From Antedon mediterranea (lineage: Eukaryota; Animalia; Echinodermata): a stretch of 64,000 bases of DNA. The notes beneath the pieces were generated by a model. The model was not told the origin of the DNA. It saw nothing but the letters and a program-made list of their open reading frames with translations, and searched no databases. The stretch covers positions 12,834,001 through 12,898,000 of the forward strand of contig NC_092672.1 in the NCBI RefSeq assembly GCF_964355755.1, written 5' to 3'. This document shows, in pieces, positions 15,109 to 64,000 of the stretch. The position numbers and the translations under genes were made by a program. The stretch's first letter is position 1, and each line of letters opens with the position of its first letter.

Positions 15109-15111
15109 GAT

Positions 15112-18900: not shown

Positions 18901-20301
18901 GTATGTTTCCAAAAAGGTTCGACTAATCCTGCCGACTATATGTCACGGTACACATTAGATAAGTGTAATGAAGTAAATAACTGTGTGACTGACAGTGCCA
19001 CTGCATATGTAAATATGTGTATTGAACAAGCTAAACCTAATGCAATGACTATTGCCGACATTCAGTTAGCAACAGAGTCTGATAAAACGATTCAATGTGT
19101 TCTTAAGTTTATGCTAAATGATAATTGGGATATGGCCAAGTTGAAGCCAGAAGACCTAACTGATGTTGATCTAGAAGACCTCAAATCATATATGAATGTA
19201 AAAGATGAAATAATTTGTTCTGATGATGGCAAAATATTATTAAGAGGCAAAAATATCATTATCCCCCTTAGCTTAGGACGTAAAGTTGTTGACCTCGCTC
19301 ACGAAGGGCACCAGGGGATAGTTAAGACAAAGAATTTATTGCGTTCTAAGGTCTGGTTCCCTAAGTTAGACAAACTTAGTGAAATAGTTGTAAAGGAGTG
19401 TATGTTGTGTCAGGCTGCAACTCCTCAGTCAGTACGAGCCCCACTCAAAATGTCTGGTTTACCACAAAACAGATGGGAGCAGGTTAGCATAGATTTTGGT
19501 CATGTTAACAATGAATATGTAATGGTTGTAATCGATGATTACTCACGGTTCCCTGTTGTCGAGCTCCTAACTTCAACTTCAGCAAATGCTGTGATTCCGA
19601 AAATTGACAAAATTTTCAGCATGCTAGGGGTTCCCAAGGTTGTCCGGTCAGATAATGGCCCACCCTTCAACAGTGGGGCATTTGATAAATTTTCAAAATA
19701 TCTTGGTTTCCATCACAGGAAAGTAACTCCATTGTGGCCCGAGCCCAATGGTGAAGTCGAGCGCTGGAAACAAGACATGTACGTCTTTTTAAGAAATTAT
19801 AGGGCGACCCCACATTGTACAACGGGTGTTTCACCAGCAATGGCCCTCTTGGGTATGGACCTTAATATTCGATTTCCATCTCTTAAAAGGGAGGAGAGTA
19901 GTAATGATGAGTCACTACGACAAACTGACAATCAAAACAAAATTAAGATGAAGCATGATGCTGAAAAAAGGAGATGCATATCAGAATGTAATCTCAACGT
20001 AGGTGACACTGTGTTAGTAAAGCAAGAAAAAAAGAACAAATTTACCACACCTTTCTGTAAAACACCTTTAATCATTGTACATAGAAATCATGATCTAATT
20101 ACAGCTAAACACCCAGATGGTAATAAGATAACCAGAAACTGGTCACATTTTAAAAAGGTGAATCTGCCAAATAGGGCACATGTAAATCCAAAACCGGTTT
20201 ATAATGATGATACTGTTGTAGTGGGACAAGATCCGATCCCACAACAGACACGCAGATCTTGTAGACAAGCAAGACGGCCTCAAAGGCTAGTTGAGGAATA
20301 A
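15988..20301 (+). pseudogene. gag-pol: Remainder of Gypsy gag-pol (CCHC, protease, RT, RNase H, integrase), interrupted by a MITE at 18222-18826
   Basis: CNLCSKSNHFASVC; IDSGS; RT ISDDIIIFG; RNase H VDASPVG, YSQIEREAL, TDHKPL; integrase HEGHQG, IDDYSRF, SDNGPPF. Removing the MITE restores ...LFNNPRSKPSLRIENW in frame. Confidence 0.95.
18222..18826. mobile_element. Non-autonomous piggyBac-type MITE (605 bp)
   Basis: TTAA TSD (18218-18221 and 18827-18830); TIR CACGTTCACTGCCA / TGGCAGTGAACGTG. Confidence 0.93.
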
Positions 20302-28717: not shown

Positions 28718-30961
28718 CTGTATTTAAGTTGTTATATCAGTCTTGCGTAGTAATAGAATTAAAAACAAAGTTCGGTCTTAAATTGCCTAAACAATCGTCT
28801 TGGTCGATCAGGGAAGATTAATTGTTATATAATTTTATAGACATTCCTACCTACCACATTTACATAATGCTTCGAGATAATATTATTATTATTATGGTAT
28901 TGCCTTGCTTTTTTAATTGTGGCTACTCGGCTGGCGTAATAATATTTATCACGATGAAAGAGTAAACTTTCCACCACGAGGAGAGAGCATACGTACCTCG
29001 ACGCGCTCTCGCCAGCTATCCCCCTTTCTCTCTCTCTCTCTCCGCGCGCAACCAGCTTACCACGAGGTTTCACAATTCAGGGAAGTTTGTGTGGTAAGTA
29101 GACTAATAATACATAATATAGGCACAATTTATTATTGTTGAAATACTGCAGTTGCATTATAAAATATATTTATATTATAAACTAGGCCAGGGCCTATACA
29201 TTGACTTCCTAGCCTACTAGTTTAGCTAGGCTAACTAGAACTAACTAAGGCCTAACCTTGCTTTAATAGCTACAGTAGCCTTGGCATATGCCTAGAGTAG
29301 TAGTAGTAGTATTATAGTTATTGTAGACTACTACCTAGCCTATGCTAGGCCCCTAGTAGTAGTAGAGTAGCCCTATGCCTAAGCTAGTACTATTAGGCTA
29401 TTAATACCTAACCTAATACTTGGTAGGAGCCTACCAGTACCATATGCATGCTTATGCCTAGAGGAGGCCTTCTATTTATATATACCTTTTGTACTGTATA
29501 AAACTAAAAGTATAAGTTTATCAAATTTGTTATAATAAATAATAATAATACATTAATAAATAAATAGGCCTAGGCCTATATTTTTAATAATTTATTGGGA
29601 AATTGTAAATAATTACCAAAATAAAATTGTATGTTGACCATGTGTTGACTAACATTTAGGATTTATTAAAACATAGGCCCCCTTTCTGTATTATTGTAAT
29701 AATCATTGAGTGTCACAAAAAAAATAATAAATACCTACATGGAAAGGGGAGCCCAAATAAAATAGCCCTCTATTGTACTGATAATATTTCGTTTTTTAAG
29801 TAAATAATGAAATACCATTATTTACTATATACAATTTTTTTCCTACAAAAATATGTACAAATAATCATATTTCGATCTTCAGCTAAGTGTATTATTTTTT
29901 GTATGCCTAATAATGAAATACCCATAGTATATAGTAAACATATAAAGCCACTTGATTGGCTGAAAACCAAAACCATGCTGTCTTTCTAGTCCATGTACTG
30001 GATACCCCCCTCCCACCCATTGGCATATCTCTTTTTTTTAAATGAAGTAAGGGGTGTAAACAAACATAAATACATTTTGGGCTATTTTTGCCATTTAAAT
30101 AAAATGTATAACCTTAATACTTTAGTTCTATTGGCCTTGATCTTGCCTGGACCTCTCTTAAATTATAGTTTTGGAGACACTTTTCATGGCAAAATCGTAA
30201 TTGTTTTTTTATTCTCATGATCCAATAATAATAATAATAATAATAATTTGATTGGTCAATATTTTAATAAAATACATACATATTCATGAGTAGGTGTCCG
30301 AAAACTGGTACTGTCTGGAAACTTATTTATTGTTAATTTTTAAGACAATCTTAGTAATTTAACTTTATTATTGTATTGTTATGTTATGTTATATTATATC
30401 AATGTTTTACTGGACCCTGTGTGGGAGAACAGTAGTTAACTATTGAACAGGCTCCCCAGTATAAAGAATAAGGAAAAAAATGTGACTGTCTGATCACCAG
30501 GTAGGAGACCTAGCCTAGGAGTAGGGGCCACCTTTTATAGCTAGCCTACCTAGGATATTTTGGTTATTTAGCCTGCCCTTCTACTTCTATACCTAGCCAA
30601 TTTTGTAGGCTACCATTTACCTACCTAGGTCTAGGCAAGCCTAGTAATAGGGCTAGATTTTACTTGTTTATTGTAGGTTAGGCCTAGTAGTACTGCCAAC
30701 TCTCACGCAAGAGGGTCAATTTTTTTAGGTCTCACGCCTAGACTATAACTGCATTTAATAATAATTATAATTGTTTTACTCATTGTTAAACCAATAAAGC
30801 ATGGACAATTTTGTTGTTATCTATAGTATTTTATTAGTACAGTACAAAATATAATTGTTATAAAATTTGTTCTTTTAGGGCTGTGGTGTGACATTTGCAG
30901 TACAGTATTATATTTGTCCAATGGTAATTTACCCACTGCATCCTCCTTTACTGTTAGCAAA

Positions 30962-33660
30962 ATGTTTAGGCCAATTTGTCCTACTTGTACCATTCAATTA
31001 TCATCAATCAAAGAATATGTAAAGCATTCCAGAACTCATATTCACCATAGAAATGCAAGATTTCCTTGTTGTTTTCCAAGGTGTATCAGAACGTTTTACA
31101 CCTACAAAGGGTTGACATCTCATATTTCAAGAGACCACAGTGATATTCACTGTCAGTCACAAGTAGACTATAGAAATATTGGTGTTTATGTTTATTGTAT
31201 GTTTGATTTTTGTCGGTCCAAGTGTTCAGATGTTAAGGACTTAATTTCACATTTGAAGACTCACATAGCAAGTGGGTTGAAAGTGGATTGTCCATTTGAT
31301 CAATGCACAGGAAATTTTGGAAAAAAGTCTTCATTTTCCTCCCACATATCACGTTGTCACATGAATTATAGTGTTTATGATATAATGGCAAAATGTGTTT
31401 CCGATGGTACAACTTCAGCCCAGAGAAATGAACATGACAGTAGTGATGATGGACTTGTTCCTTTTGCTGACACAGACATTGATTATGCTGATTCTGAAAG
31501 TCACTCTATTGATGCAACAGAATACACACAATATATTGCATTGTTCTTAATGAAATTGCAGGGAAAGTACTTGATTCCTGAAACAACTATTCAGGTGATA
31601 GTTAATGAGTTGAATTTTTTACAGCAATGTTCTCTTGATCATATGAAGAAATGTATTAGAGCTACACTTACTAGGATTGGTACTGATATTGGTGTATCTG
31701 ATGAAGTATCCAACAATCTGTTTGATGATATAGTAAAAGGTGTGTCAGACCTGAGTTGTTCTTTGATGCCTTCAGAAGCTACTCAGGTACAATCCCCAGA
31801 ATGTGGTGTTCTTCGATCGAAATATATGAGACAGAAATACTACCAAAAAGAGTTTAGTTATGTAGATCCAGTGGAAATTGTGCTAGGAGAAGAGGAAGGT
31901 TTTAAATACAAATGCCACTATGTCCCCATACTTAAAACCCTAAAAATGTTGTATGATGATAAGTCAGTCCAACAGCATATTGTACCCATTGGAGGAGACA
32001 GAAGAGGTTTTGTTGATGTTCAAGATGGAAAAGTGTTCAAAGATAATATTTTTTTCACAGAAAATCCAACTGCACTGCAAATAATCATTTTTCAAGATGC
32101 ATTTGAAGTGGTTAATCCACTGGCCTCTGCTAGAACCAAGCACAAAGTACTTGGTATGTACTTGACTCTTGGCAACATTGACCCACGATGTAGATCCCAA
32201 ATTGATCCAATGCAATTAGTACTACTTTGCAAGGAAAAGTATATAAATAAGTTTGGAGACGATAAGGTTTTTGCTAGACTAATTGCAGACCTAAAAGTGC
32301 TAGAAAAAAATGGAGTTACACTAGCAAATGGTAATGTTGTCAAAGGTGCTATTGCTGCCATAGTTGGTGATAACTTAGGCTCACATTTTATAGGAGGATT
32401 TTGTGAAAGCTTTAACACAGAATATTACTGTCGTTACTGCAATAAAACAAAGACCCAAATCAGAGAAGGTTTTGCAAATAAGGAACAATGGCAATATCGA
32501 ACCCCTGACTCATATACCAGGGCACTTAATATGTTGGAACAGGAAAATGTCCAGTCATATGAAGGAATAAAAAGAGACTCTGTCTTCAACACACTATCAT
32601 ACTTCCATGTGGCTAACCCTAGCTTACCTCCTTGTTTAGGTCATGACATTTTCGAAGGGGTAGTTGACTATGACATGGCTTTGTACATAAATTATTTCAT
32701 TGGGAAAAAATGGTTCACATATCAACTGCTAAATGAAAAACTAAAAAGATTCAAGTTTGTTGGTAGTGATACTGCAAATATACCAGCTGCTGCAATCTCT
32801 AAGAAGAAAGATAAACTAGGAGGACAAGCTGTTCAGAATTGGTGTTATTTACGTTTTTTCCCCCTATTTGTGTTTGGCTTAATTGATGATACAGAAGACC
32901 TTGTTTGGCAGTTGGTTCTTAAATTGAAAGAGATTGTTGAACTTGTTGTTTCTCCCAATATCGATGCCTCACAAGTAGCCTATTTACGTGTCCTGATTGA
33001 AGAATACATCGATGACAGAAGGGAGTTATTCCCATCAAAACCTCTACGACCGAAACATCACTACCTGAGCCATTACCATTGGCACATATTGATGTTTGGG
33101 CCCCTCATCAGATTGTGGGGCTTGAGGTTTGAGAGTAAGCACTCCTATTTTAAAAGATGTGCTCGCTATGCTCAGAATTTTATCAACATCACATCAACAT
33201 TTGCTGAACGGCACCAATTGTTGCAAGCTTACTGTTTTCATGGACAGCTTTATCCTGATGATGTTATGCCACAAATATTCAGAAGGCTGTACAACATCTT
33301 GACACTAACATAACGCAATGGGTGGTAACCGATAAAGTATGTGTGTTTGGCACCAAGTACAAGAAAGGTCTGCTCATTATTGTGAAAACAAACGCCACTG
33401 ACTGGACATTTGGAAATATACTTCTTGCTTTGGTGTCTAACAAAGAGTCGGTACATTTTGTTGTTAGACTATGCAAATCAACTATACTGCGTGAATATGG
33501 CGTTTATGAAATTTCAAGTATGGACATTAGTTCCAGTGTTGTATGTGTTAAGTACAGTGATCTTCTGGATTATTATCCACTTTCCTCTTACAAAATAGGA
33601 GGTTCATACTTTGTCACTTTGAAAAATAAACCAATGGATCCATGCTACAGTACTGCTTAG
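30962..33660 (+). pseudogene. CMC/EnSpm-type transposase with N-terminal C2H2 fingers; one frameshift at about 33270
   Basis: FQDAFEVVNPL, GDNLGSHFIGGFCESF...CRYC, HDIFEGVV, PKHHYLSHY...FGPL..WGLRFESKH. The C-terminus continues in another frame (ATNIQKAVQ...FGTKYKKG...LLDYYPL). Confidence 0.88.
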
Positions 33661-37324: not shown

Positions 37325-37360
37325 ACGTATGATGTCCACCTTTTTATTGTTGATCATTAT

Positions 37361-38216
37361 GGGTGTCTAGAAAACTCAGATCCAGAAAACTCAGATCTCA
37401 GATATATCTGAGTTTTCTAGATCTAGAAAAGTCAGATATCTGACTTTTCTAGATCTAGAAAACTCAGATATCAAGATCTGAGTTTTCTAGTTCCAAAATG
37501 GAACTAGAAAACCCAATCGTTCTATTATTAATAGAGGGTAGCTTGTTTGAAATACTACAGTATTATACGTTTTCTTACTAATAATAATAATTATTGTAAC
37601 TTGTAGTAGCAGCCTACGACTTATCATTTAGGCCTAGCTAAGCAAACTCAATTCAAGGCTCCATGTGTGGGTGCTATCGCGATGTATATCGCGAAGAGTA
37701 GGCCTGGCCCTACTAGGCTAGAAGTGGTCAACTCGTACCCAAAATAACTTGTACCTATTCCCAAATTGGCTAACTCGTACCTCAACCAACTCGTACCCAC
37801 ACCAACTCGTACATACCTAATTTTTAAGCCTACATTTCAACGGTAAAGTGCACTGTATTTTCTTTATGATTTAAGCCGTGGGCCGCTTCTACATGTTGCA
37901 ATATTAGTAAGAAAACGTAGGCCTACAGTAATCAGTTTTAATAATACTCTAGTATTTCATATGACCTACCTTCTGATTAATAATGGAATGATCCAAATGA
38001 CCTACCAACCAATCATTTGATGATCTGAGTTTTCTAGTTCCATTCTGAAACTAGAAAACTCAGATATTGATATCTGAGTCAGAAAAAAGAAGAGATCTAG
38101 AAAAGTCAGATATCTAAGTTTTCTAGATCTAGAAAAGTCAGATATCTGAGTTGTCTAGATCTAGAAAACTCAGATCTGAGATGTGAGTTTTCTAGATCTA
38201 AGTTTTCTAGACACCC
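37361..38216. mobile_element. Mutator-like (MULE/foldback) MITE, copy 1
   Basis: Long modular TIRs GGGTGTCTAGAAAACT... / ...AGTTTTCTAGACACCC; 9-bp TSD GATCATTAT. Confidence 0.92.
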
Positions 38217-38354
38217 GATCATTATCAATGCTTTTATGTTGCTATTTTTCATTTTTATCTTGCATTCAAATGTGTATGATAGATATCAGTGTATTGCATT
38301 TTAGATTATGTACAAGTTGTACAGTAACAATTATAGCTTTGTCAATTGTTCATT

Positions 38355-39439: not shown

Positions 39440-39685
39440 ACTGCAAATTACCCAGGTACAGGTATTAATGTACCGTATTACATTTTAGATGATGAAAATG
39501 GTTGGTTTTAGTATGTTAATGATTATGTACAAAATTATTCTGTACACATACAGTCAGTGAATTGCATTTTATATGATGATAATTGTTGGTTTTAGATTTA
39601 AATGATTATGTACAAGTTATACTGTACAGGTATTAATGTACCGTATTACATATTAGATGATGATGATTGTTTTTGTTGGTTTTAG
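39440..39685. repeat. Minisatellite of about 85 bp inside the CMC element, split by later insertions (continues at 54306-54394 and 55284-55670)
   Basis: The unit TTGGTTTTAG...AATGATTATGTACAA...CATTTTAGATGATGA occurs on both sides of the P element and of MITE copy 2. Confidence 0.88.
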
Positions 39686-40687
39686 CATGGAGGTATAAAA
39701 AAGAAGGAGATTCAACTAGCTAATAGAGATTAAAATGCTGTGTGCTATATGAACTATGACTGACTTCCTCGGACGCTGATTGGCTCGCTTAAATGAGTTC
39801 AAAAAAGCCGCCTTCCGCTCTTAGTGGAGTCTGTTAGGGATATTTTGGTTCACTTTTTTCCAAAAGCACCAAATTTGGTATACAGGTTACCCACCCTATA
39901 CTAATTCAATTTTTGATGGGCGCCAAGCGAAATGACCCCTTGGGTCACCTAATTTGCATAATTTAAAATGGCGGACAGTTTCGCTCAAACACTCTATATC
40001 TCTGAAAATACTGGTCACAGAGAGTTGATTTTAAGTTCAAAATGTTCAGAACATAAACATTCCTATTTGCTCTAATTAAGTTTTTTTTATAAAAATGACC
40101 GGAAGTACCATTTTTAACCTTTGACCCATTTTTTATGGCATTGCCATATCTCAATAACGAGTTGTCGTAGAGACTTTATTTTGGTGTCAAATTGTTCAGA
40201 ATATATATGTTACTATTTAGTTTAATGGAACATTTAATCAAAAAATGACCGGAAGTACGTAATTTTGCCTTTGACCTTTATGGTGTATATTACAATTGCT
40301 AACTAAATCAATGTTAACATATTTCTCGATATCTCTAAAATTACTTGTCATAGAGAGTTGATTTAGGTTTCAAAATGTTCATAGCATAAACATTTCTATT
40401 GGCTATAATGAAGATTTTTTTCAAATAATGATCAGAAATATTACATTTGACCTTTGACCTGTTTTTCAAGACATTACCATATCTCATTATTAAGTTGAGT
40501 GGAAATTTCATTTTGGTGTCAAATTGTTCAGAAAGTGTATGTTTCTATTCACTCTAAAAAAAAATTTGATCAAAAAACTTAACCAGAAATAATTCTTTTC
40601 ACCTTGAAGTTCAAACATGAAATTTATAACCACCTCGGTAAAGATTCTATTCTATAAAAATAGAACACTACCTTGAGTTTCAACATT

Positions 40688-43600
40688 TTAGGCATTATGA
40701 GATTCATAATTACTACATCCACCTTCACACTTGCACAAACTTGTACATCTGACACCAGCACGAAAACATTTACACCTCCCAGCGCAAGTCTTGAGGCAGC
40801 CGCAGTGCATAAGTACAGCACATGCCACAGAAGCGTCAGTAAGTGTGGTCCACAGTGGCTTCCAGTTGTTTGAGTCATCTCTCTGCCAGCCCAGTCAGGG
40901 ATGTTCTGATGAGCTATGATTGCTTTTACTCCAATAAAAACTTGCTTGCAGTAACGCTCTCTTTACATGCTGGAATAATGCAGCTTGAGTTGGTGGTAGT
41001 TTTTCTAACGATTTTCTGCCAGTTATAAACATGTGATGCCTAGCTTCATTAACCTTTGAAAAGCCACACCCTTTATTGTACATAAGAACAATAAATCGTT
41101 CGATATCTCTCATGTGTTCGGATTCAATATCAAATGACAAAGGATGGTTGATGAGTTCTACAAGTGTCTTTGTTATAGTGGATGTACTATTCCATGTTGA
41201 CCAGGCAGTTTTCTTACCAATCCCAAGAAACTGTGAAGTTGTGTCGCATCCAGTTAGACTGTGAAAAAGCGGTAATGCAACACATCTTGTTGGCCCAAGA
41301 TTTAAAAAGATGGTATGAACAGGAATATCACGATAATGCTTTCCTGTTCCAAAGCCAACCCAAAGTTCCTTGAATTTAAGGGTCTCAAAAAAGTGAATTG
41401 CCAGGATCACAACATCACTATCCACTGTACGAATATACGCTGTAAAATGACCTTCTTTTGCTGCATGTGACAGATGTAAGATAATCCTGGTGTCTGCCTC
41501 AGAATGGTTACATGACTGAAGAGATGATACATCACACTCTCTATTTGAAAGAACGGCATCAAAGCGATTACTTATAAGAAGTTTCCCACACATGTCATTT
41601 TGAACTATTTGTTCACTGATGAAGGGGAACAATTCCTTCTTGTTTTCTTCATTCTTTAGAAATCCATTCCAGTCTTGTTTTGGAATTTTTGTGTTTCCAT
41701 CACCAACTTTTGTTCGAGGACCATTTCCACGTCGCTGTTGCGTCAACAATTTAAGGTTGTTACATTCTGGGTAATTGTCCCATACTGCATCAATTCGTTG
41801 AGTATCTCTCTTTAATTGGGCCTTTAAGAATGGTATGATGTTGTACTTCACATACTCATTGAAAGTATTGACATTTGTGGGACGTACCATATGGACTACT
41901 GCTGCCATATCAAGAACCACAACTGATGTTTTTATAACATCAGGAGGTTGGCAGATGGTAGATTTATCAAGACACTGAAGAATGTCTGATTTCGTCCCAG
42001 ACCTAAGTAATCCTTGGTCCGCCAAGCTTGGTGGCTCTCTAAGATTTTCAAATTTAAAAAATTCAGCCAAGTCAGCATCTGGACGAGATTGGATGGACAG
42101 GAAAAGTTGCGTTACTAATGACATATTATGCTTTAGTATCCCCTTGTCATTATTGCCTTTTTTCTTGATGTTTGGTCGATTAGCAAAGGTTAAAATGTTA
42201 TTACGTTTGATCGTATCGGTAACTGGTACTGTTGCCTTTTCTAGTCGTTCAGTAACATACGTGTTATAAAGAGATTGGCCAGTTTCACGTATTTTGGAGA
42301 GGGATCTGACAACTGCACTTTCCATGACACTGTGAGTATCAAGTGCATAGAGTTCGTGACTTGTTTCACAGAACGGATTGTTGAGCTCTTCCACCACCTT
42401 AACAAACGAAATTACATCATTTCGAAACATTACTTGAAAGCTGTGTCCTTCCTCATGATGAGCATTGGAAACTGATGAACTGATGTCTGTTTCGAACTCC
42501 TTAACAATCCGTGAACAGTCTGGTCCAGTCAACATAAACAGGGTAAGATTGTCAGGGTTCTCGTAAAGACCAACTGCTCCACCATGTTCCTGAAGTCTTC
42601 TGTTTGACTGTTCATGAGATTGGTCCTTGGCAATGAGGCTAAACTTTTTTGCTGATTTTTGCACAACAAAGTTTCCCTTCATAAACTCTGCATAAATGGC
42701 CGGGTGAGTATCTGGTAAAGTAACCATGTCACGTACATGAACTGGAAGCCAACGAGCATAGTTCACATGGTCAAGGACATGGAACCAACCACAGAGTTCA
42801 TCACAAGATTGAACATATAACTCAAAATTTCCCTCTCGAAGAGAACGTATAAAGCGGGCCATCATTAGTTCTAGATCCATTATCATCGACCAAAATTGAA
42901 ATTGAGGCACAGAATCTGAATTTCGACGATTCCACATTTCGAATGGCTCAGTTGGGCCCACTACACCGGTGCTGTATTTTGTGTATGCAGTTTGTTTCAG
43001 AAGGTAAAGTGACATTAGTGTTACTTGATGTGCATACCTAGTACGTTTGATTTTATGTTCATTGAGCACAGATTCTGCACGCCCAGATGTTAAAACTTCT
43101 GCCTGAGAAAGGACCGTTGCCCATCCTGAATCGCGGAGCAGCTTTCCTATCATAAGATGCATCTTGTCTTCAATGTGCAATGCACCCATCATAGCAACCA
43201 ACTTGCTTTCTCCTAAAGTATCAGGATATTGCCACTGAATTCGTTTTATGATCGCATACAGTGGCTGATCAGCACCAAGTACAGATGTCTGACCCTGGTT
43301 TATAAACTTGGTACTTTTCATTGTCAATTCCATTGCGTGTTTCATTGAAGATGCACACGCAGCCTTATTTGGAAAGAGAGGGTATATACCGATCTCGGCA
43401 GGTGGTTTTACCGATTCTTCACTTGCCATCCTTGAATTATATCCCGACCAAGTGATAGTATCAGAATTTGTAAGTGTTTCCTTCTTTAAAACACCCATGG
43501 TATGTGCCATCCAAACTTCATCTTTAACTTTAGCACCGTGTAAATTGTGTTGAGGTCTGCATCTTCTACTATCATCATATAATGGTGCAAATACATTTGC

Positions 43601-45346
43601 ATTTGTGAGATGAATTGGAGTATGTATTACATAGTCATCTGGTAGTTGAGGTTTCTTTGTGTCTATTGGATTGATACATATAGGTGGACGTTTCTTTCCT
43701 TGATTGTCATGAGAAAGATGGTTCGTAACACTGAGGGCATATCCATGAAACTCATCTTGTGAGAAGTTTCCTTGTGCTTTGCTATCTATATTATCTACAT
43801 CGTGTGTGGTGAATACATTGAGACGAATGTTGGTAGGCAAAACTACCCCATCCTGAAAAAAAGTTAATGATTAATGTTTAAAAGCGGCCTAGTAATTACA
43901 TTATACAGTATTGGATTTATTATACATTAAAAACATACATATAAAACATACATATAAAACACTGATAGAATTTACCTTAGCATGGCGAGCACAAACGGCA
44001 CGTGCAATGTCTTTCTTCACTTCCATTATGCGACTATATGATACTGAAAGACCATGTGCATGATCAATATCGATCTGCTTTCTGTTTCTTCCTTGACCGT
44101 GTAGTTTAAGTCCGTGATATAAAGGAAAGGGCGTTTCTCTTTCCTTATTGTGTCGTATTTCAGCAACTTTGCATACGTGATGCGTACCTTTGCTAGCATT
44201 AAATATTAATAACTGCGAAATATTGCGTGCAATCTTCTGCCTTTTATTTACATTTACTCCATCCTCGTTTCTTTGAAGAGGATCTGGGCCCTGAAGTACT
44301 ATATTGAGAAAACTCATCAGCTCTTCACTTACAGCAACTGTTTGGCAATCAGAAGAGAAGGAGCCATTGAAGGGCGGCTGGTCCCGCAAACAAAGATTGT
44401 GCATTATTACAGCAGCCCTCATCAACGTTAAAGCATCTTCTTGACATAACTGTGACTTAAATGCTTTTTTAAGTTCCTCCACTACTTTTGAATTATTAGA
44501 TATGAAGATATCTTTTCTACCATATTTTTGTGTAGAGAATTCTTTCCATTCAGGAAGAAAGCTGAGAAGGTGGTCTTTAAATCTGGTTGCATGTGGATCC
44601 TTTTTATTTCGACATGGGTGTCCATTATCACACATTAGCTTCTGATAAATTTCACGCAGCTCTGAAAGCTTAAATACTGTACTTTTTGCATTTTCGATCA
44701 TGGTTACAATTTGAGCACATATTATAGAATCAAATGGTAAAATTATTGCAGGTGAAACATCTTTCGATCGCTCAGTAGACCGGGCAGAATCTCTTAATTG
44801 TGTATAACACTGACGATGGTAATAAAAATCAGCTGCATGGGCGTCAGAAGCTACAGTTAGTCTACCAAGCAACTGGAAATTTTTATTAATTTTTGCCCAA
44901 CACTTTAGATTAACATCAACAGCATCTGTTTCCACCTTATGAAGGTTGGTTGGAGATTTCTCCTCGCAGATTACACAGCATATTCCTACAGTCAAATAAT
45001 CTGATGATCGAAGTTTCTTTGGACTACTATGTGTTGTAATACTAGCGTCATTGTTTAGCTTGCTACTTGCCCGCTTGACACGTGAGCTGCTAACAAAGCT
45101 TCTGCACATTTTATGATACTTTGCTTTATGTATTTTTAAAGTTTCTGCAATACCTGACCCATCATCTAACTGACTAAGTGTCACATTGATACCAGCAGGA
45201 AATGTATTTGGGTTTATCTGACTTAAATTGTTTATATCTTTCTCTAGTGATAACATTCCATTTTCAGTCGGTGTTTGTAAAGGTTGTTTATTTTTTTGTT
45301 GACAAAGGCAACAGAGATCCCAATTCAAATTGTTGGTAGAAGACAT
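40688..45346 (-). pseudogene. Academ transposase with XPG/PIN-like nuclease and Cys-rich tail; exons 45346-43976 and 43852-40688
   Basis: DNID, FHG, DQPLYA, GALHIE, NYARW, DQSHEQ, HSEADTRIILH, DSDV, GCDTTS, LPPT..AL..HVKRA. A premature TGA at 40895-40897 separates the tail CGCLKTCAGRCKC...CTSLCKCEGGC. Confidence 0.9.
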
Positions 45347-46305
45347 TATTAATATTTATTATCCTATAGTTAAGGTGTAAAAATCCTAGGAAAAAAAATA
45401 CAAAGTTGTTATCAACATGATTTTAAGAAAGCAAAAATTGTGTATACTGCCTTTCGCCTAGGCTAGGCTAGGCCCAAGCTAGGTGTTCTACCATCTATAG
45501 AAGTATACGCACCTAGGCCTTTGAGTTTGAAATATATTATTTGCAAAGTATAATTAATGTCTATCTACTAAAGATGAGTATTCTTTGTCTATACAATGTC
45601 TATCATTTGCATGTATTAATATGTACTCACAACTAAATAGGACAATCTATTTAACTTCATTCAGTGCAGTAACCATTGTAACTATGCAAGTAGCCATCTT
45701 TGACATGTGCTCAAAAGTTTTAGATTATATGTTGATAGAGGGCGTAGTTCAGTCAAAATAATATAATTATGGCTTACCTGAGAGCTACTTCCGGCCATTT
45801 TTTGGCAAAATCTTTCATTATACAGAATAGAAACATACTGTACACTTTCTGAACAATTTGACACCAAAATGAAATTTCCACGGCAACGCAATAATGAGAT
45901 ACGGTAATGTCAGGAAAAACAGGTCAAAGGTCAAATGTAATATTTCTGATCATTATTTGAAAAAAACCTTCATTATAACCAATAGAAATGTTTATGCTAT
46001 GAACATTTTGAAACCTAAATCAACTCTCTATGACAAGTAATTTTAGAGATACAGAGAAATATGTTAACATTGATTCAGTTAGCAATTGTAATATACACCA
46101 TAAAGGTCAAAGGCAAAATTACGTACTTCCGGTCATTTTGTGATTAAATGTTCCATTAAACTAAATAGTAACATATATATTCTGAACAATTTGACACCAA
46201 AATAAATTTTCTACGACAATTCATTATTGAGATATGGCAATGCCATAAAAAATGGGTCAAAGGTTAAAAATGGTACTTCCGGTCATTTTTATAAAAAAAA
46301 CTTAA

Positions 46306-47536
46306 CCCATTGACCCCTAAGTTTATTTTGCTCCCCTGGGACCCAAAAAGCATATGTCATATAATTAACCCTAACTTTTTTTCTAAACACAGACATTAAA
46401 AAAATTAAAAAACAAAAATAATGCAAAGGACATTTTATTTCCAAATATGTTTTCAAATTTGTGTTACAACTTATTTTGGCGGAGTATGGATTATGCAAAT
46501 TTTAGAAATATTTTAGGAAAATTATTAAAAATTTGTAATTTATCTTTGACTACCAAATGCACAAAAATTAATAAATATTTCATAATAAAACTCATCTCTT
46601 CATCAGAACCTATTTCTTCTCTTCAAAATAAGACCAAACTTGACCATTATGAATGACCGGTTTCGAAATTATGAAGAAATTAGTAGACTGACTCATCCGA
46701 CGATGACCATATGGGGCCTAGGCCTATCGGGAGCCGCCCCGAGAGCGTCCTCGCCGCTGTTTGTTCACCGGGAATGTTAAAAAAAACATCCCGAAAGCGA
46801 CTTGGAATTCGCGATTCCCACGCGCACCGGCATCCCTCGGGAGCTTAGTCCGCTGTTTTAGACGTGTAGCTTGCAGAAAATTTGACGAAAATGCGTCGAA
46901 AACTTATGAAATTAAAACAAGTTTGGTATCAAAATGTTTGTCAAAAGTTATGCTTCAATAAACTGACCTTTGCGCAGAGTTTGAACAAATATTTCATGCC
47001 CATAATGCATCTGACATGTCAGGGTTCATATTACAATCAAAGGTAAACAATATGGCGCGGCCCTTGTGAGGACATCTTCACGACTTTTCTCCGGTAGAAA
47101 AATCACATTTTTACATGGAAATATGACGATTTAGACACTGTAACTGATACATAATCTTTATTTATTATACATTTATTGTATACAAGCTTCAAAATAGTGA
47201 TTATTAGAAATAAAGATGGATTTTAGACGATTTTACGTTGTATGTCTAGGCCTAGATTCATTCAACGCGCCTGTCGCGTTTCGAACAGCGTGCTTCGAAA
47301 AACGGTTATATTTTCGAATTTTATTTTCAAACTAACTTCAACAATTGTTTTTATATATTTAGAAGCATATTTTTAAAAAAAAAGTTGTGAGTATTTTGTA
47401 TAATTATTTGTTACGATTCATGCACAGCAAACTGCGCATGTAAATTCGATTTACTTTTTTTTTGTTGAAAATTTGTTTACAATGACCTTGACTTTTAACC
47501 TTTTGAGCGCTTTAAGCGCTTATCGTGGTGAATCGG
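46306..47536. mobile_element. Non-autonomous piggyBac-type element inserted in the Academ TIR
   Basis: TTAA on both sides; imperfect TIRs CCCATTGACCCC / GTGGTGAATCGG. The opposite Academ TIR shows the empty site with a single TTAA. Confidence 0.88.
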
Positions 47537-48820
47537 TTAATTAGAGCAAATAGGAATGTTTATGTTCTGAACATTTTGAACTTAAAATCAACTCTCTGTG
47601 ACCAGTATTTTCAGAGATATAGAGTGTTTGAGCGAAACTGTCCGCCATTTTAAATTATGCAAATTAGGTGACCCAAGGGGTCATTTCGCTTGGCGCCCAT
47701 CAAAAATTGAATTAGTTTAGGGTGGGCAACCTGTATACCAAATTTGGTGCTTTTGGAAAAAAGTGAACCAAACACCCATATTTCATCCCTAACAGACTCC
47801 ACTATCTGCCACGCGGGACGTCGCCTTTCATCGTTGTCAGTGCAGCCGGTCGTTCATACGCTTGTTACAAGGCCCCTTAGCATTTAAGTCGCCCCGAACA
47901 TGTATTTTAAACACTTTTTTGGTTGTATTTGCTTCTAGAGAGGGCTTGTGGGGTCAGAGTTTAACTTATCCGAAACCATATTGAATTTAGAAAGCCATTA
48001 CATTTTATTAGAAGAAAATCGAGTAATATTTACCAAAATAACCGTAAGTTTAAGATTTTATGGTTTTTATATTATATATCGATAACACGATAACGTCGGA
48101 AAATGATTTTTTTTAGTAAATATTATTTAATAATTTAGGTGTCAAACCGTGAAAATCCCGACCGTGTACACGCGTGTATATTTTCTCTACATGCATTGCA
48201 ACATAGGGCTTTTTTCTCGGCGAGTCGCTTGTTGGTTCATCAAGTGTGACGTAATCAACGGGTTAGGAAGATAATGCTGGGGCTAGGCCTAGAGTATCCT
48301 TCTTGTTTGATATTATGATTCGTGAACCTATTCAACATTGTTATTAATATAATTTATAGTTATAGGCTAATTTATATTATAATTTTAATACAATGGTGAA
48401 CACATTTTAGTAAGACAGAGTAGGCTAAGTAAAGTAAAGTAAGGCTACTAGTACTACTAAACTAGCTAGCTAGGCCTCTACACTACTAAGTCTAGGCCTA
48501 GACTACAGTACAACTAGTTGGTTAATATGGTTTGTTTTTGTCAGATAATTTTTAATTAATTTAATTTTAGTAGTTTTTAACCTACCATAGGCCAAAATTA
48601 AATCTGGTAAACTGCAAGTTACATAAGAATTTTAAGATATTTAAATGTCATAAATGTCTTGCAAACATTGAATTGGTAACCAAAATATACAGAATAATTA
48701 ATGGTAATACCAGGTAATTTAACTTTATTTTACAATATTAGCAATAAGTACATTTTTTTTAAATGCCAATGATTTTTTTTATAATTTCTAAATTAATTTA
48801 ATTTCAGGAAATTGTAGAAA

Positions 48821-51800
48821 ATGGAACGGCACAAATGTTGCCTCCAGGATCTCTGTAGATTATGTGGTAAAAAAAACTGCTCTAAAATAAATCTATTGAA
48901 ATCCAAGTTGTGCTATGCAAGAGATATCAACCTTTCATTAGGAGTTGATGTGTTGCAAGATGTAGATGGCATCCATCCCAACTTCATCTGCAACTGCTGT
49001 AAGATGAAATTACATCGTTGGCGGACTTTCCGCAATAAGAAAAAAGACAAAGAAATATCAATTCATCTTTTGCCATTTGCTGAACATTCCGATGATAATT
49101 GTTCTGTATGTGCATTTTCTGTTCCATTGATCAATCTCAACAAAATTCTAGCAATTGGGAAGAATCTTGGCTTTGTAGCACAACTTGGAACCGACAAAGT
49201 CACATTCATTAAGATAATTAATGATCTTCCTATTGTTTGTGTGCATATTTATGCCACATGCTCATGGAAAGTAAATGTTTTGTTGAAGGATTCTACAAAT
49301 AGATGTGCAAAATTTCCTGAAATTCTGACAGAAGATAATGCAGAATGTTTATTGACATGGATATGGAAATCTGCAATTTGCTGTGGAAACACTGAGTTCA
49401 TCCAACTTTGTCGCAAGCAATCACCATCAAACCTAGCAGTGTTTAATAGTATTTCTGGATCAACAGTGGCAATGGAAGAGGACACAAATGGTGAAAGAAC
49501 AATAAGGCACGTGAACTGCTGTATATTTGTTGAGGGAAATCGCTGTGAAGTATGCACAATGTATAGAACAACGTTAATGTCTAAAAGGTCAAGAATTAAT
49601 GATCAAAAAGCAGTAGACATTAGTTCTCATGCACGAAATGATCAGTTAAACAATGATCAGTTAAGGAAAAAGTTGATGTTGGTGTCAAATGACAGGAAAA
49701 ACTTACAGAAAATGGTTAAAGACCTTAAAGAAAAAGTAAGGAAGTCATTTGAAGATGATTCTAGTCCATTGCAAGAAACAATGTCTGAAGCTCTAAAGAC
49801 AATAATGACAACACATACAGAAACTGTGTCAGAACAATTTAAGGAAGGTTCTCCACAAAGACTACTATGGGATGAACAAGTGGCTGCCAATAAATCATCT
49901 GCAACAGGTCGTCGTTGGCACCCAGCAATAATTCGTTTTTGCTTAGCGTTGCACATGAAGTCTACTGCAGCTTACCGTATTATTAGGAACTCTGGTTACT
50001 TGACATTGCCACATGAAAATACCCTAAGGAACTACACACATTTTACTGATGCAAAGTCTGGTTTTAATCCTGATGTTATCCTGCGGATAAAGCATGATAT
50101 ACATTTTGATGCGTTACCTAATTTTAGGAAAATTGTTTCATTAAGTTTTGATGAAATGAAGATAAACGCAGGTCTTGTGTATTCTAGCAAATCGGGTAAT
50201 CTTGTTGGATTCTCCAGTATGGGATCAATGAACGAAGCCATGGACAATTTTGCAAGAGAGTTGGACTTGGACAAAAATAAACAACCAAAGGAAGCATCAC
50301 ACATGTTGTCTCTGATGGTTCGGGGCATGTTTATGCCTTTACATGAAACATTCGCACATTTCCCCACTCATGGCTGCAAGAGTTACAATTTATATTGGAT
50401 CATATGGAAAGCTGTGACTTGGCTAGAGTATGCAGGATTCAGAGTTTGTGCTTTCGTATGTGATGGTGCAAGTCCAAATCGAAAATTTTACAGACAGCAT
50501 GGAACATCTGTTTCTTCAGAAGTTGTCTTTTCAACCATTAGTCCATATACGAAAAGGAATATCTATTTCATTTGCGACACTCCACACTTGTTAAAGACTA
50601 CAAGAAATAATCTCGAAAACTCTGGATTTAACTCAAAATCAAGAAACTTGCATGTGAGTTATACATTTTAATATTTTTTTTTCATACCAGTTTTTACTAG
50701 TGAAAACACAATTCCGCCCCCCCCCCCCCCCCCAACTTTATGCTACAGTGGCAAGCTCTTCATTTTTTTTCCTCTTTTTTTTTGCAGTTTAATCATCAAG
50801 ATCTAAAGTGGAATCAGTTGCTCACCTTGGTAGAAGAAGATATTGGATGTGGTAGTGGCCTAAGAAAACTCCACAAAATACGCCACGAACATTTATACCT
50901 TACGCCAAGCTTAAGGATGAAAGTTAAACTAGCTGTCCAGGTAATTTTAGTTTGTTTGTTTAGTTTTTAGTAATCTGAGACCCAATGTAAATTTAAATTG
51001 ACTTCTTTCTTGTTGTCTAGGCAAATACATTTTTTAAAGTTTTTATCATTCTCCATTTATCTTAGATCCTTAGCAGCAGTGTTGCCCATGCGTTGGAAAT
51101 TCAAGGCAGACATGACACAAAAAGTCTAATCCACTTCATAAAGTACATGAACAAGTTTTTTGATTGTCTTAATGTTAGTCGTGTTGAGAGACGAAGAAAC
51201 AACATAAATGAGAACCTGTTAGAATACAGAAGTGTGGATGATTCAAGATTAAAGGTACAGATTTGTTTTTCAAATTATTAAAGAATTTCATATAAATTAT
51301 CCTAATACACCTATAGTCAACCAAACATGAAGATCGGTTTACCCATGGAGTTATATTTTTATACCGCCATGATTTAACTGAAAAGTTCAGCCAAGATTTA
51401 TACTTACCCCAGTGAATTTGGGGTATACACCTAAGTGTATCCTTGCCATTTGATTGGTTGATAAGGTATCATGCGACATGCATTTTTTCAATCCATCCTT
51501 GCATTCAGGTAGTATATTGAATATTTTATTCATGGAATGGGCTAGCCCATCTTTCAATGGTTACTCATGAAATCATTTTTACTGGCTTTTAGTGGCTTGT
51601 AGACGATTTCCTCGGCTTTCTTAATACATGGGAGAATCAATGTTTGGAAACACCAAATACAACAGCAGCAGAAAAGAAAAGGATGTGCCTAAGTCGTGAA
51701 ACACTTGACGGACTAAGAATAACAGGTTATTTTTTTTCTTTTCATTTATGTTTAGCTATAGATTGTTTGATAGATCATAGGTTGCAAAAGCACAATCTAA

Positions 51801-52272
51801 TAAGTTCTTTATCTTTCAGTGTATTAAAAAGTAAATATAAACCAGGGCTTGCGACCCCTGTCTTCTAGCCTGGCACGTCATCAAATCCTGTTATTCCTAA
51901 TGATTGTATTGTTAAAAACTATATTAAATCAAATGTTAATACAATTAATGTTTATTGTGTTCCTCTACAGTTAACTCTTTTGTGAAACTTACAAAGGAAT
52001 TGCTTGCTACTGATGGTGTGGACTATGTGTTGAGTGAAAAACTAAACCAAGATCCTCTTGAGGAATACTTTAGCAAACAGAGAGGATGTGGAGGAAGAAA
52101 TGAAAACCCAACAGTTCATCAATTCCAACATAATGCATTGACACTACAAGTTGCAGGAGCCAGAAGTGTAACTGGTTCAATCCACTCCAACACCAGGAAG
52201 TCTGGATTTAGCATAGACAGTACCCCATTCCCAAAAAGAACGAAAACCATAAATAATAAAGTAGAAATATAA
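48821..52272 (+). CDS. P-element/THAP9-family transposase, 5 exons (48821-50653, 50788-50940, 51066-51254, 51593-51725, 51971-52272), 869 aa; RAG1-N/Chapa-like Zn module instead of THAP
   Basis: All junctions are GT-AG and in frame, with no stops. Motifs RWHP..IRFCL, LSFDEMKI, CDGASPN, CDTPHLLK..RNN, RMKVKLAVQ, FFDCLN, NQDPLEEYFSKQR..GG.NENP. Confidence 0.93.
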
Positions 52273-52351
52273 TAATAATTTCATGAACACCTTTTATGTA
52301 TTTACTGAACTGTATAGAAAATATTTATATTGTGAATAAATTGGAAATTCT

Positions 52352-54014
52352 TTAAGTTAAGTCATTATTTTTAAGTTTCTTTCTTAAGGGTTTTTCACCC
52401 TTCTTTCCGACTGATGCATCTTTCTTTTTTCTTTCCATCATATATACGGTGGTAAAAGCCTTACATCTGATGTCTATATAACATCCAATAACTTTGTTAA
52501 ATAAAGTAGACACTACTACCTCATTAACATTATCCCCAATTAACCGTTCCCATGCTAATTTAATGACAGGCGAGTCAAGGGCTGAAGTAAGTTTGTCCTT
52601 TAAATTTAAACCACAAAGTTCTGTAATTTTTGTGGAGGACAAAATGGGTTTTACCTCGCATTCTAGCCGCCTAAAAAATAAAAATGAATCATTATTTATT
52701 TTAAATAGGCCTCCTCTGTTAATTTTTGTAATCCAGTCTTTACTATAATCTAAAAATGACATTTTATCATTGTTGTCTTCAATTTCTAATTTCCTTAATA
52801 CATCAATAGATAAATTAGCTAGATTGTTATTTGGAAATCTTCTGTAAAAGCGTAGTAATTTATGCGGAATATAGCCAGCCATGTATCTTAATGTTTGTTG
52901 CTCTTCCTTGGTTACCTCTACCTGTGGCGGTTCATTTGCAGCAGCATTCTCATATGGCCCAATTTGCCTTAACAACAACTCTTCTACAATTGCCTCGCTT
53001 GCCATTTGGAATAAAAAATTTGCAGCAATATCACAGTCAACTAAACCTAAAAATTGATTTGAGTTTTCATTTATGCGAAAAGTATGAAAGTTTCTACACA
53101 CTGCGTCTAACCCTTCTGATGCAGTTCTTTTAGTGTTCGCTACAGTTGCTGTCTCCCATAAAGTATTGACAAGTTTGTTTGCAACATCCTGAATGTCTTT
53201 TGACCGCAACTCGACCACTGCATTGTTTATTGCTGTTGCCATCTTTGGATTTAACTGCAGCATAGGGTCTTCAAGAACTTTGTTAAATGAGTGATTAACA
53301 ATTTCCAAAGAATCAGCTAATGCATTTTCAAGTAGATATTGGCTCTTCCATTTTATCGGCTTCTTTTTTGCAGCTGTGAATTATTTTAAAATAAATCATA
53401 AATTAAAATGTTTTTCCCCTAAAAAGTTAAATTCAATCCGACTATCCCTAATATTTTAATTTCCTGTGCAAAATACAATCAATGTAGTGGGCGACGTAGG
53501 GCTGAAATATCTATTCCCTGTATTTCGGTAATTTTAAATTTAATTATTTGGAAAATGTGTCAACAGCAAAATCCATGAATAATTATAAAATGTACAGTAG
53601 TACTAGCCTAGGCCTAGGTAGTAAATAGCCTTATTTTCTATTAGAGTAATTAATTAGTTAGGCCTAGGCCTATACCATCTACGCTCATTAATACTTACCT
53701 TTTTCCGGTTTATTGTTAGTAGTTGATTCGCTGGGCCTACTAGCGTTCGTATAATTGCTTGGCCCACTAGGCTCAGAACCAATAATACACTTGTCGCACT
53801 TCCACGTTTCTTCGGCGGCTAGGCCTAGGCCTGAACTCACGCAATTCGTATGGAACCATCTGACTTCGCAATCTTTACCGTTGCAGGCTATTGTCTCTTC
53901 CGTCGATGGACAGTTACATATACAGATATTTTTCACTTCTTCGGTGCCTACTTCGGTATTTATTTCTTCAAATTCTGCTAATAATTCTTTTGTTAACAAC
54001 TCATCAAACTCCAT
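52352..54014 (-). CDS. PHD-finger protein with a P-transposase C-terminal-like domain, 2 exons (54014-53699, 53373-52352), 445 aa
   Basis: Exon 1 has a C4HC3 PHD, CIC...IACNGKDCEVRWFHTNC...WKCDKC. The phase-1 GTAAGT...ACAG intron joins in frame to the ORF with LRYMAGYI...WITKINRGGL. Confidence 0.85.
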
Positions 54015-54394
54015 CACATCAATTTTTGTAGAATAACCTCCATTGAATAAAAGAATACAGTGTTGCTTTTTTGCACTGCCGCGCGCTTGCACACGACGCT
54101 CATGTGCTCGAGGTCAAGTGGTTTGCTTCCGGTTTTACAATTAATTATACGACCTTTTCGTGACATATTGACCTTGTACGCCACGCAGTGCTTATGTGCG
54201 ATACCGTTTATAATTACTCCCTTATCTGTTAAACATTCGGCGGCTGCAATGAATACATCAAAGGAGACAAGCTAGTTGAATCTCCTTCTTTTTTATACCT
54301 CCATGGTTTTAGTATGTTAATGATTCTGTACGAAATTATACTGTACACATACAGTCAGTGAATTGCATTTTAGATGAAAATGGTTGGTTTTAGT

Positions 54395-55283
54395 GGGTGT
54401 CTAGAAAACTCAGATCTCAGATATATCTGAGTTTTCTAGATCTAAAAAAGTCAGATATCTGAGTTTTCTAGATCTAGAAAACTCAGATATCTGAGTTTTC
54501 TAGATCTAGAAAACTCAGATATTAAGATCTGAGTTTTCTAGTTCCAAAATGGAACTAGAAAACCCAGATCATCAAATGGATCGTTCCATTATTAATAGAG
54601 GGTAGCTTGTTTGAAATACTACAGTATTATACGTTTTCTTACTATTACTAATAATAATAATAATTGTAACTTGTAGTAGCAGCCTACGACTTAAATCATA
54701 AAGAAATACAGTATACACTTTTTAAAATGTAGGCTTATCATTTAGGCCTAGCTAAGCAAACTCAATTCAAGGCTCAATGTGTGGGTGCTATCGCGATGTA
54801 TATCGCGAAGAGTAGGCCTGGCCCTTATCTAGTCTAGAAGTGGTCAACTCGTACCCAAAATAACTCGTACCTATTCCCAACTTGGCTAACTCGTACCTCA
54901 ACCAACTCGTACCCACACCAACTCGTACATACCTAATTTTTAAGCCTACATTTTATCTGTAACATGCGCTGTATTTTCTTTATGATTTAAGCCGTAGACC
55001 GCTTCTACATGTTACAATATTATTAGTACACAGTAATCAGTTTTAATAATACTGTAGGCCTACTCTAGTATTTCAAATGACCTACCTTCTGATTAATAAT
55101 GGAATGATCCAAATGACCTACCAACCAATCATATGATGATTTGAGTTTTCTAGTTCCATTCTGGAACTAGAAAACTCAGATATTGATATCTGAGTTTTCT
55201 AGATCTATCTGACTTTTCTAGATCTAGAAAACTCAGATATATCTGAGATCTGAGTTTTCTAGATCTGAGTTTTCTAGACACCC
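54395..55283. mobile_element. Mutator-like MITE, copy 2 (same family as 37361-38216)
   Basis: Same TIRs and interior; 9-bp TSD GGTTTTAGT. Confidence 0.92.
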
Positions 55284-56507: not shown

Positions 56508-58059
56508 TATGCTTACAATATAGGACATTTTATTCTTTTTAAAATGAAGACAACCAACCTACCAACTATTATTTAAAATATTATGTTTAATTTTGTAGCT
56601 TTTAGGAGACAACACAGAGAAGCACATACGAGTACAGAAGTGTCTTCACCTCCAACTTCTCCTCATTCAAGGACATCACAGTCCTACAAATCGATTTTCT
56701 CTAGGAATGAAAACACTGATGACAGTAAGTGTATTTTAATATCTGTGTGTTTAATATTTTCAACGTGCGAGTTTTTGGAGCTGATGGACAGAAAGAGCAC
56801 CAGACGGAGGGGAGTAGCATGGTAGTATATCTACTAAAATCACCAGCGCATTTGGCTTTTCTGCATTATCCGCATATAAATGTGAAACTATTAAAACGAT
56901 TATTACAGTATTAATAATACCTAACCATACTATAAATTATGCTTGTCACAAAGGAAATCAATGCAAATAGAATTAAAAAATTAAACCAACGTGTAAACTT
57001 CTAACAAAATACATTATACTGTACATTCTGTTTTGTTTTATTTTTTTAGGTTTTAAAATCAATGTCTTGATGAAACTGGACACTATAATAAAAAATCAGA
57101 ATGAACAGCTTCAAATAATAAAGAATCAAGCAATTCAAAAAGGTGCATTAGAAGATGCAGAAATTGAAGATGTTGTGCCTCAACCACTAGAAAGCAAAGA
57201 AGAATTGTACTCACTTGATGAAAAATTGAAAGATGCGGCATTTAGGAAGAACATGGTAAATCTTAAAAATTCTATTTGTACCGTATGTTATAGTGTAAAT
57301 TTATTTCCTACAGTGATCCCATTATATACTCATATTGAGGTTATAGAAATACAAGGAGGTCGCGAACAAGCAGGAATACGGTTTACACAGCAAAATTTGA
57401 AATTCTAAGCAAGAAAAAAAAATCTTGTTTTAAGAAAAAATTCTTAAAATAAGTATTTTTTTTTCTTGTCAAGATTTAAAATTACTTAAAACAAGAAATA
57501 ATTTTCTAGAAAAGACACATTTTCTTAAATTAAGTTTTGCAATATTCTTAAAAATGCTTATTACAAGAAATATTTTACTTAAAATAAGGAGTCAATATCA
57601 TTCTCTTCTTATTAAGAATAGTTTTGCTTAAAACAAGATTTGAAAATACTTAATTTGAAAAGTATTTTACTTAAAATAAGAAATCAATATTATATTTATC
57701 CCTATCAAGAATAATTTTTCTTAAATCAAGATTGATGAATTCTAAAAATTACTTAAAACAATAAATATTTTTCTAGGTAAGACAAAGTTTCTTAAATTAG
57801 GTTTCGCAATATTCTTAAAAATACTTATTTTGAGAAATGTTTTACTTAAAATAAGAAGTCAATATCATACTATCTTATCAAGACTATTTTTGCTTAAAAT
57901 TGAGATTCGCAATATTTTTAAAAGTACTTATTTTGAGAAATGTTTTAATTAAGATAAGAAGTCAATATCATACTATATCCTATCAAGACTATTTTTGCTT
58001 GAATTGAAGTCAATTCTATTTTAATATTTTTAAAAATACTTATTTTGAGAAATGTTTTA

Positions 58060-63270: not shown

Positions 63271-64000
63271 TTAAAACAATAATGAAAAAAGCAATTAAAT
63301 TCTTGGTAAGAATATTGTTCTTAAAGTATTATTTCTTGGTAAGAATAATTTTCTTGATATGAATTTGTGTGATTCTTGTTAAGAATTTTACGATTCTTGG
63401 TAAGCCAAAAAGTATTGAAATACGGACAAGTCAAAATTTACTTGTTTCAAGAAATATTTTGCTTGAAACAAGTTTTTTTTTTCTTAAAACAAGAATCAGA
63501 ATTTTGCTGTGTAAAACAAATGTATTGTAACAGAGTTTTTACAATTACTATAAACATTCAAACTATCTAGATTAAAATCATTATATAACCGTGTTTTCTA
63601 TTTAAAGTAATGTAATGTTTTTATTTTTTCTCTTTAGATCAAGTATTTTAGCATAATTGGGGGGTCAACTGTCAAAGACACAGTTAGAATTCTGCTAAGA
63701 AAAATAGGTTCCAATAAGTTAGGGTCCGAATTTAGTATGTACGGACGAAAAGGGAAGGACAGTTTTAAAAAAAGACATATGTGCCGAGTAATTATAAGTA
63801 AGTACCATTGTTTAGGTATAATTAAACCTATATCTGTCAAGAATGAAGCGAGGTCGGCTCCTAGCGCAGTCGGCTAAAATAGTGGCAGCTAAACCGTAGA
63901 AAACCATAGGTTTCCTTACTGCTCTTCATGTGTTCCAACTAGTTGGTCAAAATACTTACGCTCTCTCATGACTTCTCTCGTCTCTCTTATTACTGTCCAG

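Follow-up and report, generated by a model that had tools for sequence, protein, structure and literature searches.

The window, a stretch of 64,000 nucleotides of DNA from the feather star Antedon mediterranea (contig NC_092672.1), contains a real and intact two-gene variant of the P superfamily of transposons, in which the split of the transposase between two convergent genes is evident. Both genes lie inside an element that extends over positions 39686-54305 and is bounded by perfect 36-bp terminal inverted repeats (TIRs) and a 7-bp target site duplication (TSD). The transposase ends after its RNase H domain, and the protein of the convergent gene, which is predicted to adopt the fold of the P C-terminal domain (CTD), probably binds the transposase as a subunit.

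The P-type transposase (869 aa) is encoded on the plus strand at 48821..52272 by five exons (48821-50653, 50788-50940, 51066-51254, 51593-51725 and 51971-52272), with an intact frame and a sequence equal to that of the database protein P0155. The exon structure was predicted from in-frame GT-AG joins and from the identity to P0155; no transposase splice joint appears among the contig joints listed. The protein displays an HTH domain, an RNase H domain with D444, D548 and E800, a DxxH motif at residues 586-589 and a GTP-binding insertion, and the Pfam families PF21787, PF21788, PF21789 and PF12017 all score over their cut-offs, as befits a core of the P type. The Drosophila transposase (6p5a_A) matches it with an E-value of 1.2e-19, with D444 and D548 aligned on D230 and D303, and its last aligned residue, 555, falls at residue 824 of our protein, where 45 residues remain. 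E800 is probably the third catalytic residue, as the PF21789 match suggests. The stop codon is found 69 residues after this Glu of the QDPLE motif, with no CTD in the same polypeptide, and 79 nt away from the stop codon of the convergent partner gene. An earlier note on this DNA had the transposase stopping about 60 residues past the motif; the early end without a CTD stands and the distance was slightly low.

At the N-terminus of the transposase, where a THAP domain is expected, there is a zinc finger of the RAG1-N / zf-AD type (48830..49000, plus strand; Pfam zf-AD, E 1.8e-5, under the cut-off), and no THAP domain was matched in the 869-aa protein. The finger matches the RAG1 N-terminal motifs as printed in PMC1131882, and the two transposase relatives tested, P0159 and P0177, both score over the cut-off of Pfam RAG1_imp_bd. 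Among 63 transposase relatives the RAG1-N-type pattern fits 13, and THAP occurs in one (P0208).

The left TIR of the element (39686..39721, plus strand, 36 bp) begins with CATGG and pairs perfectly with the right TIR (54270..54305, minus strand, 36 bp). The TSDs are located at 39679..39685 (GTTTTAG, within a tandem-repeat array) and at 54306..54312, and the combination of TIRs with a 7-bp TSD agrees with the 7-8 bp duplications that define the P superfamily. Both ends lie outside 52352..54014, the piece on which the earlier note was written, and were missed there. A search for TIRs restricted to 45.5-48.8 kb against 54-57 kb gave no pair, because a nested element shifts the left end to 39686. 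This unrelated element (39822..47804, minus strand; 7,983 bp) is inserted 136 nt inside the left end of the P element, whose left arm it splits, and shows TAG...CTA ends, long inverted ends, a 3-bp TSD (TCT) and minus-strand ORFs of 484 and 991 aa; the P element measures 6,634 bp once it is subtracted. No Pfam family scores over its cut-off on these ORFs. The nested element is presumably Academ-like, and its ends are high-copy in the sequencing runs. The transposase sequence of the P element is present in identical form on two contigs, and the near-identical partners P0003 and P0004, two residues apart, are on different contigs, an arrangement consistent with the unit having moved as a whole not long ago. 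Together with the intact frames and the perfect TIRs and TSD, the identical copies suggest, at the level of sequence, that the element moved recently, and its putative activity would be GTP-dependent cut-and-paste.

Other repeats occur in the window. A further 14-nt match to the TIR start occurs at 59673 on the minus strand. A MITE with GGGTGTCTAG ends is present twice, at 54395-55283 and 37360-38217. The copy at 54395 has a 9-bp TSD and belongs to the tandem array that also holds the P element, whose right end is about 90 nt away; the site of this MITE shares the GTTTTAG word. A duplicated gene piece (99.5% identical) is found at 25488-26724 and, split, at 56508-57385 and 63509-63875. Its first copy adjoins an 828-aa ORF (30827-33313) that lacks a Pfam match and has the look of a CACTA/EnSpm-type transposase. 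Another duplicated segment (98.7%), at 8835-10626 and 12560-15989, has minus-strand ORFs of 239-303 aa, none with a Pfam match; pol fragments of the gypsy type border it at 3971-5720 and 15964-20301.

The partner gene is located on the minus strand and consists of two exons. Exon 1 (53699..54014) encodes an acidic N-terminus, a PHD finger (53787..53924) and a low-complexity linker, and a 325-nt GT-AG intron in frame (53374..53698) separates it from exon 2 (52352..53373). The latter encodes an extra helical domain (52952..53335, exon-2 residues about 13-140, pLDDT mostly >85), the CTD (52421..52921, exon-2 residues 151-317, assigned by the match of the predicted structure to 6p5a_B) and, before the stop, a basic C-terminal tail (52355..52420) with a conserved KxExxLRKxL-type motif. 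In alignment A1, a profile of 74 partner clusters, 70 of 74 rows keep R330 of this motif and 65 of 73 keep L333. The product has 445 aa and is identical to the database protein P0004, with YMAGY at residue 269 and RGGL at residue 325, as quoted earlier.

Splicing of exon 1 to exon 2, which the earlier note had made a check of its reading, was seen in one contig of run X5 that joins 53373 to 53699 with CT..AC ends and a short side of 28 letters; this run is RNA by guess, comes from another sample and also has an intron-spanning contig. The joint is absent from runs X4 and X8. Exon 2 is frameshifted in the main X5 contig and in the X8 contig, and these therefore stem from other copies that are decaying. 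An X5 contig spans partner exon 2 and the last transposase exon (51993-52272); if this contig is RNA, the 3' UTR of the partner would overlap the transposase antisense. In run X1, contigs break at 48384 and 51904 and the contig depth over the partner is about twofold higher than over the transposase, a hint at internally deleted copies that have the partner gene only, depth not being copy number.

The identity of exon 2 was assessed mainly by predicted structure. The AlphaFold model has a pLDDT of 88, and among 48,161 chains its sole match with a Z of at least 8 is 6p5a_B, the next-best chain reaching 6.9. Model residues 151-317 are aligned by VIA-align on residues 617-734 of this chain (118 of 118 residues, rmsd 2.2) with a Z of 12.0, a value to be read against the tool's own warning that helical models may reach a Z near 13 by chance; we credit the match because the protein it singles out is the one expected, the domain is covered in full, and both Foldseek (probability 0.99, E 0.36) and the motif blocks agree with it. 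The A1 profile meets 6p5a_B with an E-value of 0.096 and both motifs in order, and Pfam PF12596 (Tnp_P_element_C) is found in 2 of the 74 members of A1. YIAGY and RGGL blocks are printed in the THAP9 preprint (10.64898/2026.08.31.747927). Exon 2 alone gave no useful sequence match in Pfam or the PDB, the ESM Atlas contained no usable match, P0003 folded without an alignment reached a pLDDT of 35, and the helical domain (residues 13-140) has no structural match above Z 5.6 among the 48,161 chains. This evidence supports, through the predicted model, a partner that carries the P CTD fold and a transposase without it. The earlier proposal that the missing CTD sits in the antisense PHD gene is thus upheld by the structural match, the joined exons and the common element.

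The layout recurs widely. A search of 1.84 billion representatives with the partner gave 1,071 clusters, of which the best 150 measure 133-535 aa and match almost all at the C-terminal end; many members are probably single-exon gene calls, so that length alone proves little. Of the 63 transposase relatives, 13 reach the catalytic Glu and all of these end 55-88 residues later, and the partner profile scores against none of the 63 (best E 0.24). Viral contigs contained no transposase relatives. We examined 95 loci (80 of 221 metagenome matches and 15 of 15 genome-bin matches), whose DNA is likely animal host DNA in the assemblies. The last catalytic segment with its stop is present in 59 of them, and an antisense partner follows downstream in 34 of these 59. 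Where the contig continues for 1.5 kb or more, 28 of 29 loci have it, and where it continues for 3 kb or more, all 19 do; counted as clusters of 90% identity, the figure is 22 of 23. Three loci deviate: L027 shows no partner in 2.06 kb, L079 (4371-8620) has it head-to-head, upstream of an intronless transposase frame, and L083 includes a decayed second copy with a same-strand partner fragment. In a reciprocal census, which covered five assemblies, 11 of the 13 matches to the RNase H C-terminal part faced a partner. Counted from the other side, there were 17 partner places: a clear transposase piece faces 12 of them, a weak one faces one, and four have none within 1.5 kb.

Among the 34 partner-bearing loci, six hold a complete element, 5.0-5.8 kb long, whose TIRs of 30-50 bp start with CAT(A/G)GA and whose 7-bp TSDs are exact. 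In locus L087 (6347-13232) a P-type element is inserted inside a related one, so that one TIR pair encloses another and each pair has a separate 7-bp TSD. Loci L081-L095 come from prokaryote genome bins; the P-type transposons on their contigs contain introns and are likely DNA of a host that was binned together with the microbe. Gene trees were built from 21 pairs, the window plus 20 loci, leaving out 6 near-duplicates and 8 short matches. Transposase and partner trees correlate (Mantel rho 0.82, p<=0.0002) and have 8 of 18 splits in common, against 0.2 expected at random and a maximum of 3 in 2,000 shuffles. The matching trees show long co-inheritance, as for any two linked genes, and not binding.

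With regard to binding, we modelled the complex of transposase residues 338-860 with exon-2 residues 10-339, our own alignments not being part of the input. The complex score was 0.65 (runs of 0.65, 0.56 and 0.76) and the three controls all scored 0.00; of microbial pairs, 51 of 78 solved ones come up to this mark as against 2 of 108 mismatched ones, the corresponding eukaryotic figures being 39 of 65 and 2 of 126. The runs have at least 73% of contacts in common, with a partner pLDDT of 43-54 that leaves its fold uncertain there. Confident contacts lie between partner residues 35-129, in the helical domain, and transposase residues 417-576, and the CTD received no confident placement. The recall of a solved complex is a less likely cause of this result, because the helical domain has no counterpart in 6P5A. 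Conservation at the interface is mixed, slightly above chance on the partner side (0.029) and below that of its region on the transposase side (0.987). From this model, the helical domain is likely a docking module that stands in place of a linker. The interaction of the two proteins, which the earlier note had named as another check, is thus supported as a prediction.

In Drosophila, the CTD is carried on a disordered linker and touches both DNAs (PMC7776569). In the mechanism that we propose, the helical domain would dock on the RNase H lobe, at its outer face, and this docking would replace the flexible covalent linker of the Drosophila transposase. The CTD and the basic tail would touch the DNA of the transposon end and of the target, in the manner of the Drosophila strand-transfer complex. 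The partner would then tune target capture or the rate of integration and would not contribute to catalysis. According to the preprint 10.64898/2026.08.31.747927, the Drosophila transposase is still active after deletion of its CTD and integration by THAP9 goes up by about 60%, and the partner is therefore more likely to tune than to enable transposition; by analogy, it may even be dispensable or inhibitory.

These deletions would also suit a partner that binds DNA at the element ends and regulates on its own, likely as a repressor or by modulating transcription, without a stable complex with the transposase. The acidic N-terminus with a PHD or C2H2 finger, reminiscent of transcription regulators, points the same way, as do the breakpoints at 48384 and 51904 with the higher depth (not a copy number), which hint at partner-only copies, and the four of 17 partner places without a transposase piece within 1.5 kb. 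The complex prediction, however, comes up to the mark while every control scores 0.00, and its contacts involve a domain that the family conserves; the near-universal retention of the partner in autonomous elements would also fit a needed or useful subunit better than a pure repressor, and we consider the lone regulator unlikely. An unrelated passenger or neighbour, or a layout produced by assembly or annotation artefacts, could be suspected from the weakness of the CTD sequence match when taken alone (the profile E-value of 0.096 and PF12596 in 2 of 74). This reading is highly improbable in the face of the structural match, the common TIRs and TSD, the 22 of 23 diverged clusters and the matching trees, to which are added the two contigs that bear an identical transposase with two near-identical partners. 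The subunit reading is the one we favour, with moderate confidence.

The role of the PHD finger is a separate question. Its best PDB matches are ING1-5 (ING3, E 1.2e-8), in line with the ING-type resemblance suggested from the letters alone, and its Cys4-His-Cys3 zinc ligands are complete. PMC5000080 describes a Tyr-Ser-Met-Trp cage common to ING1-5 and, for ING3 Y8A, a drop in binding from 0.93 to 46 uM, about 50-fold worse. In our protein the cage positions are Ile30, Ser37, Thr41 and Trp53, so that two of four are lost, and relative to ING3 the changes are Tyr-8 to Ile, Met-19 to Thr and, in the Arg-2 pocket, Asp-23 to Asn (Asn45). Among 149 relatives scanned, every PHD and C2H2 finger belongs to the 32 of at least 375 aa, in which the finger slot holds PHD in 9, C2H2 in 9 and neither in 14. 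The 34 partner-bearing loci include one PHD and four C2H2 fingers, many contigs being too short to tell, and the six complete relatives have neither finger in the 111-355 nt from the partner match to the TIR. As judged from the sequences, conservation concerns the helical domain together with the CTD and not the PHD, and the acidic N-terminus with its finger (PHD, C2H2 or none) is likely an optional module.

The suggestion that gain of a PHD targets marked chromatin is accordingly a part of the earlier note that was not established. A PHD that reads H3K4me3, or another state of the H3 tail, and steers the transpososome to marked chromatin could draw on the retained zinc ligands, Ser37, Trp53 and Trp71, on the relatives P0006, P0022 and L056, in which the aromatic, Met, Asp and Trp positions are kept in a near-complete cage, and on the sea urchin RAG2L PHD, a divergent finger that binds methylated H3K4 according to PMC7204232. 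Against it stand the replacement of Tyr by Ile, of Met by Thr and of Asp by Asn at the cage and Arg-2 pocket, the occurrence of a PHD in only 9 of the 32 long relatives and in none of the six complete ones, and the location of this copy, a single site, in a tandem-repeat array that is not evidently a promoter. We hold such steering to be quite improbable. Given the loss of cage residues and the sparse occurrence of the finger, H3K4me3 targeting is therefore not the core mechanism of the clade and is doubtful for this copy, whose finger is, by its residues, likely weakened.

The two-gene layout may have arisen by gene fission, as the earlier note proposed, or by fusion, and an inversion is required in either direction because transposase and partner are convergent. 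One-gene P elements sought as an outgroup among weak matches and in the five assemblies were only decayed fragments, and no longer fused form was present among proteins of 938-2675 residues, a weak test, canonical P transposases being shorter.

With the Drosophila P transposase (PDB 6P5A/6PE2), THAP9 and the zebrafish P-like transposase our protein has in common the HTH, the split RNase H with DDE and DxxH, and the GTP-binding insertion, and the element has their short perfect TIRs starting CATG; the CTD fold with its YIAGY and RGGL blocks, which are listed in the THAP9 preprint too, is a further common feature. In contrast to canonical P and THAP9, the CTD here belongs to a second gene, convergent with the first, which adds a helical domain and an optional finger to it, the TSD has 7 instead of 8 bp, and the transposase finger is of the RAG1-N/zf-AD type instead of THAP. 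Galileo, of the P superfamily, has one transposase gene and long TIRs, and is not known to have a second gene. It has a 7-bp TSD in common with our element (PMC4168063). A similar tail-to-tail arrangement of transposase and partner between TIRs is described for ProtoRAG and RAG1L-RAG2L in PMC7481187; the RAG2L partner often has a PHD (PMC7204232), and a RAG1-N-type zinc finger on the transposase is a further likeness. ProtoRAG nevertheless differs in its Transib-type core, 5-bp TSD and kelch partner, as opposed to the P-type core, 7-bp TSD and all-helical partner found here, and the likeness is one of analogy and not of membership, the partner here being built from the transposase's own CTD. 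Two proteins in one element, a transposase and KolX, are also described for Kolobok Kol0, within the hAT/P/MuDR/Kolobok C/DxxH group, in PMC9587614, where accessory proteins are given for Kolobok only; its TTAA 4-bp TSD, RR termini and KolX ballast fold, as described there, are all absent here.

We found no description of two-gene P elements in the open literature; Repbase and most subscription journals, outside the reach of our search, may catalogue them, and the supplements of the preprint might list stand-alone CTD proteins. Tentatively, the elements could form a large, old and undescribed branch of P transposons with a two-subunit transposase, in which a CTD protein with a docking domain and a swappable reader (PHD, C2H2 or none) sets the site or frequency of insertion. 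If true, such elements, with their RAG1-type N-terminal finger and tail-to-tail PHD partner, would parallel the RAG1/RAG2 transposon independently of it and would provide a handle for targeting that is modular by nature. The CTD of P and THAP9 has no settled function, as it contacts DNA in the structure and is dispensable in the 2026 preprint; its presence as a separate, strongly conserved gene makes its role testable by adding or removing one protein. More than 1,000 clusters of 'uncharacterized' proteins are thereby given a predicted function. P elements can thus be two-gene systems, like ProtoRAG, and the one described here is a candidate in an intact state, to whose partner it might be possible to add new domains for targeting.
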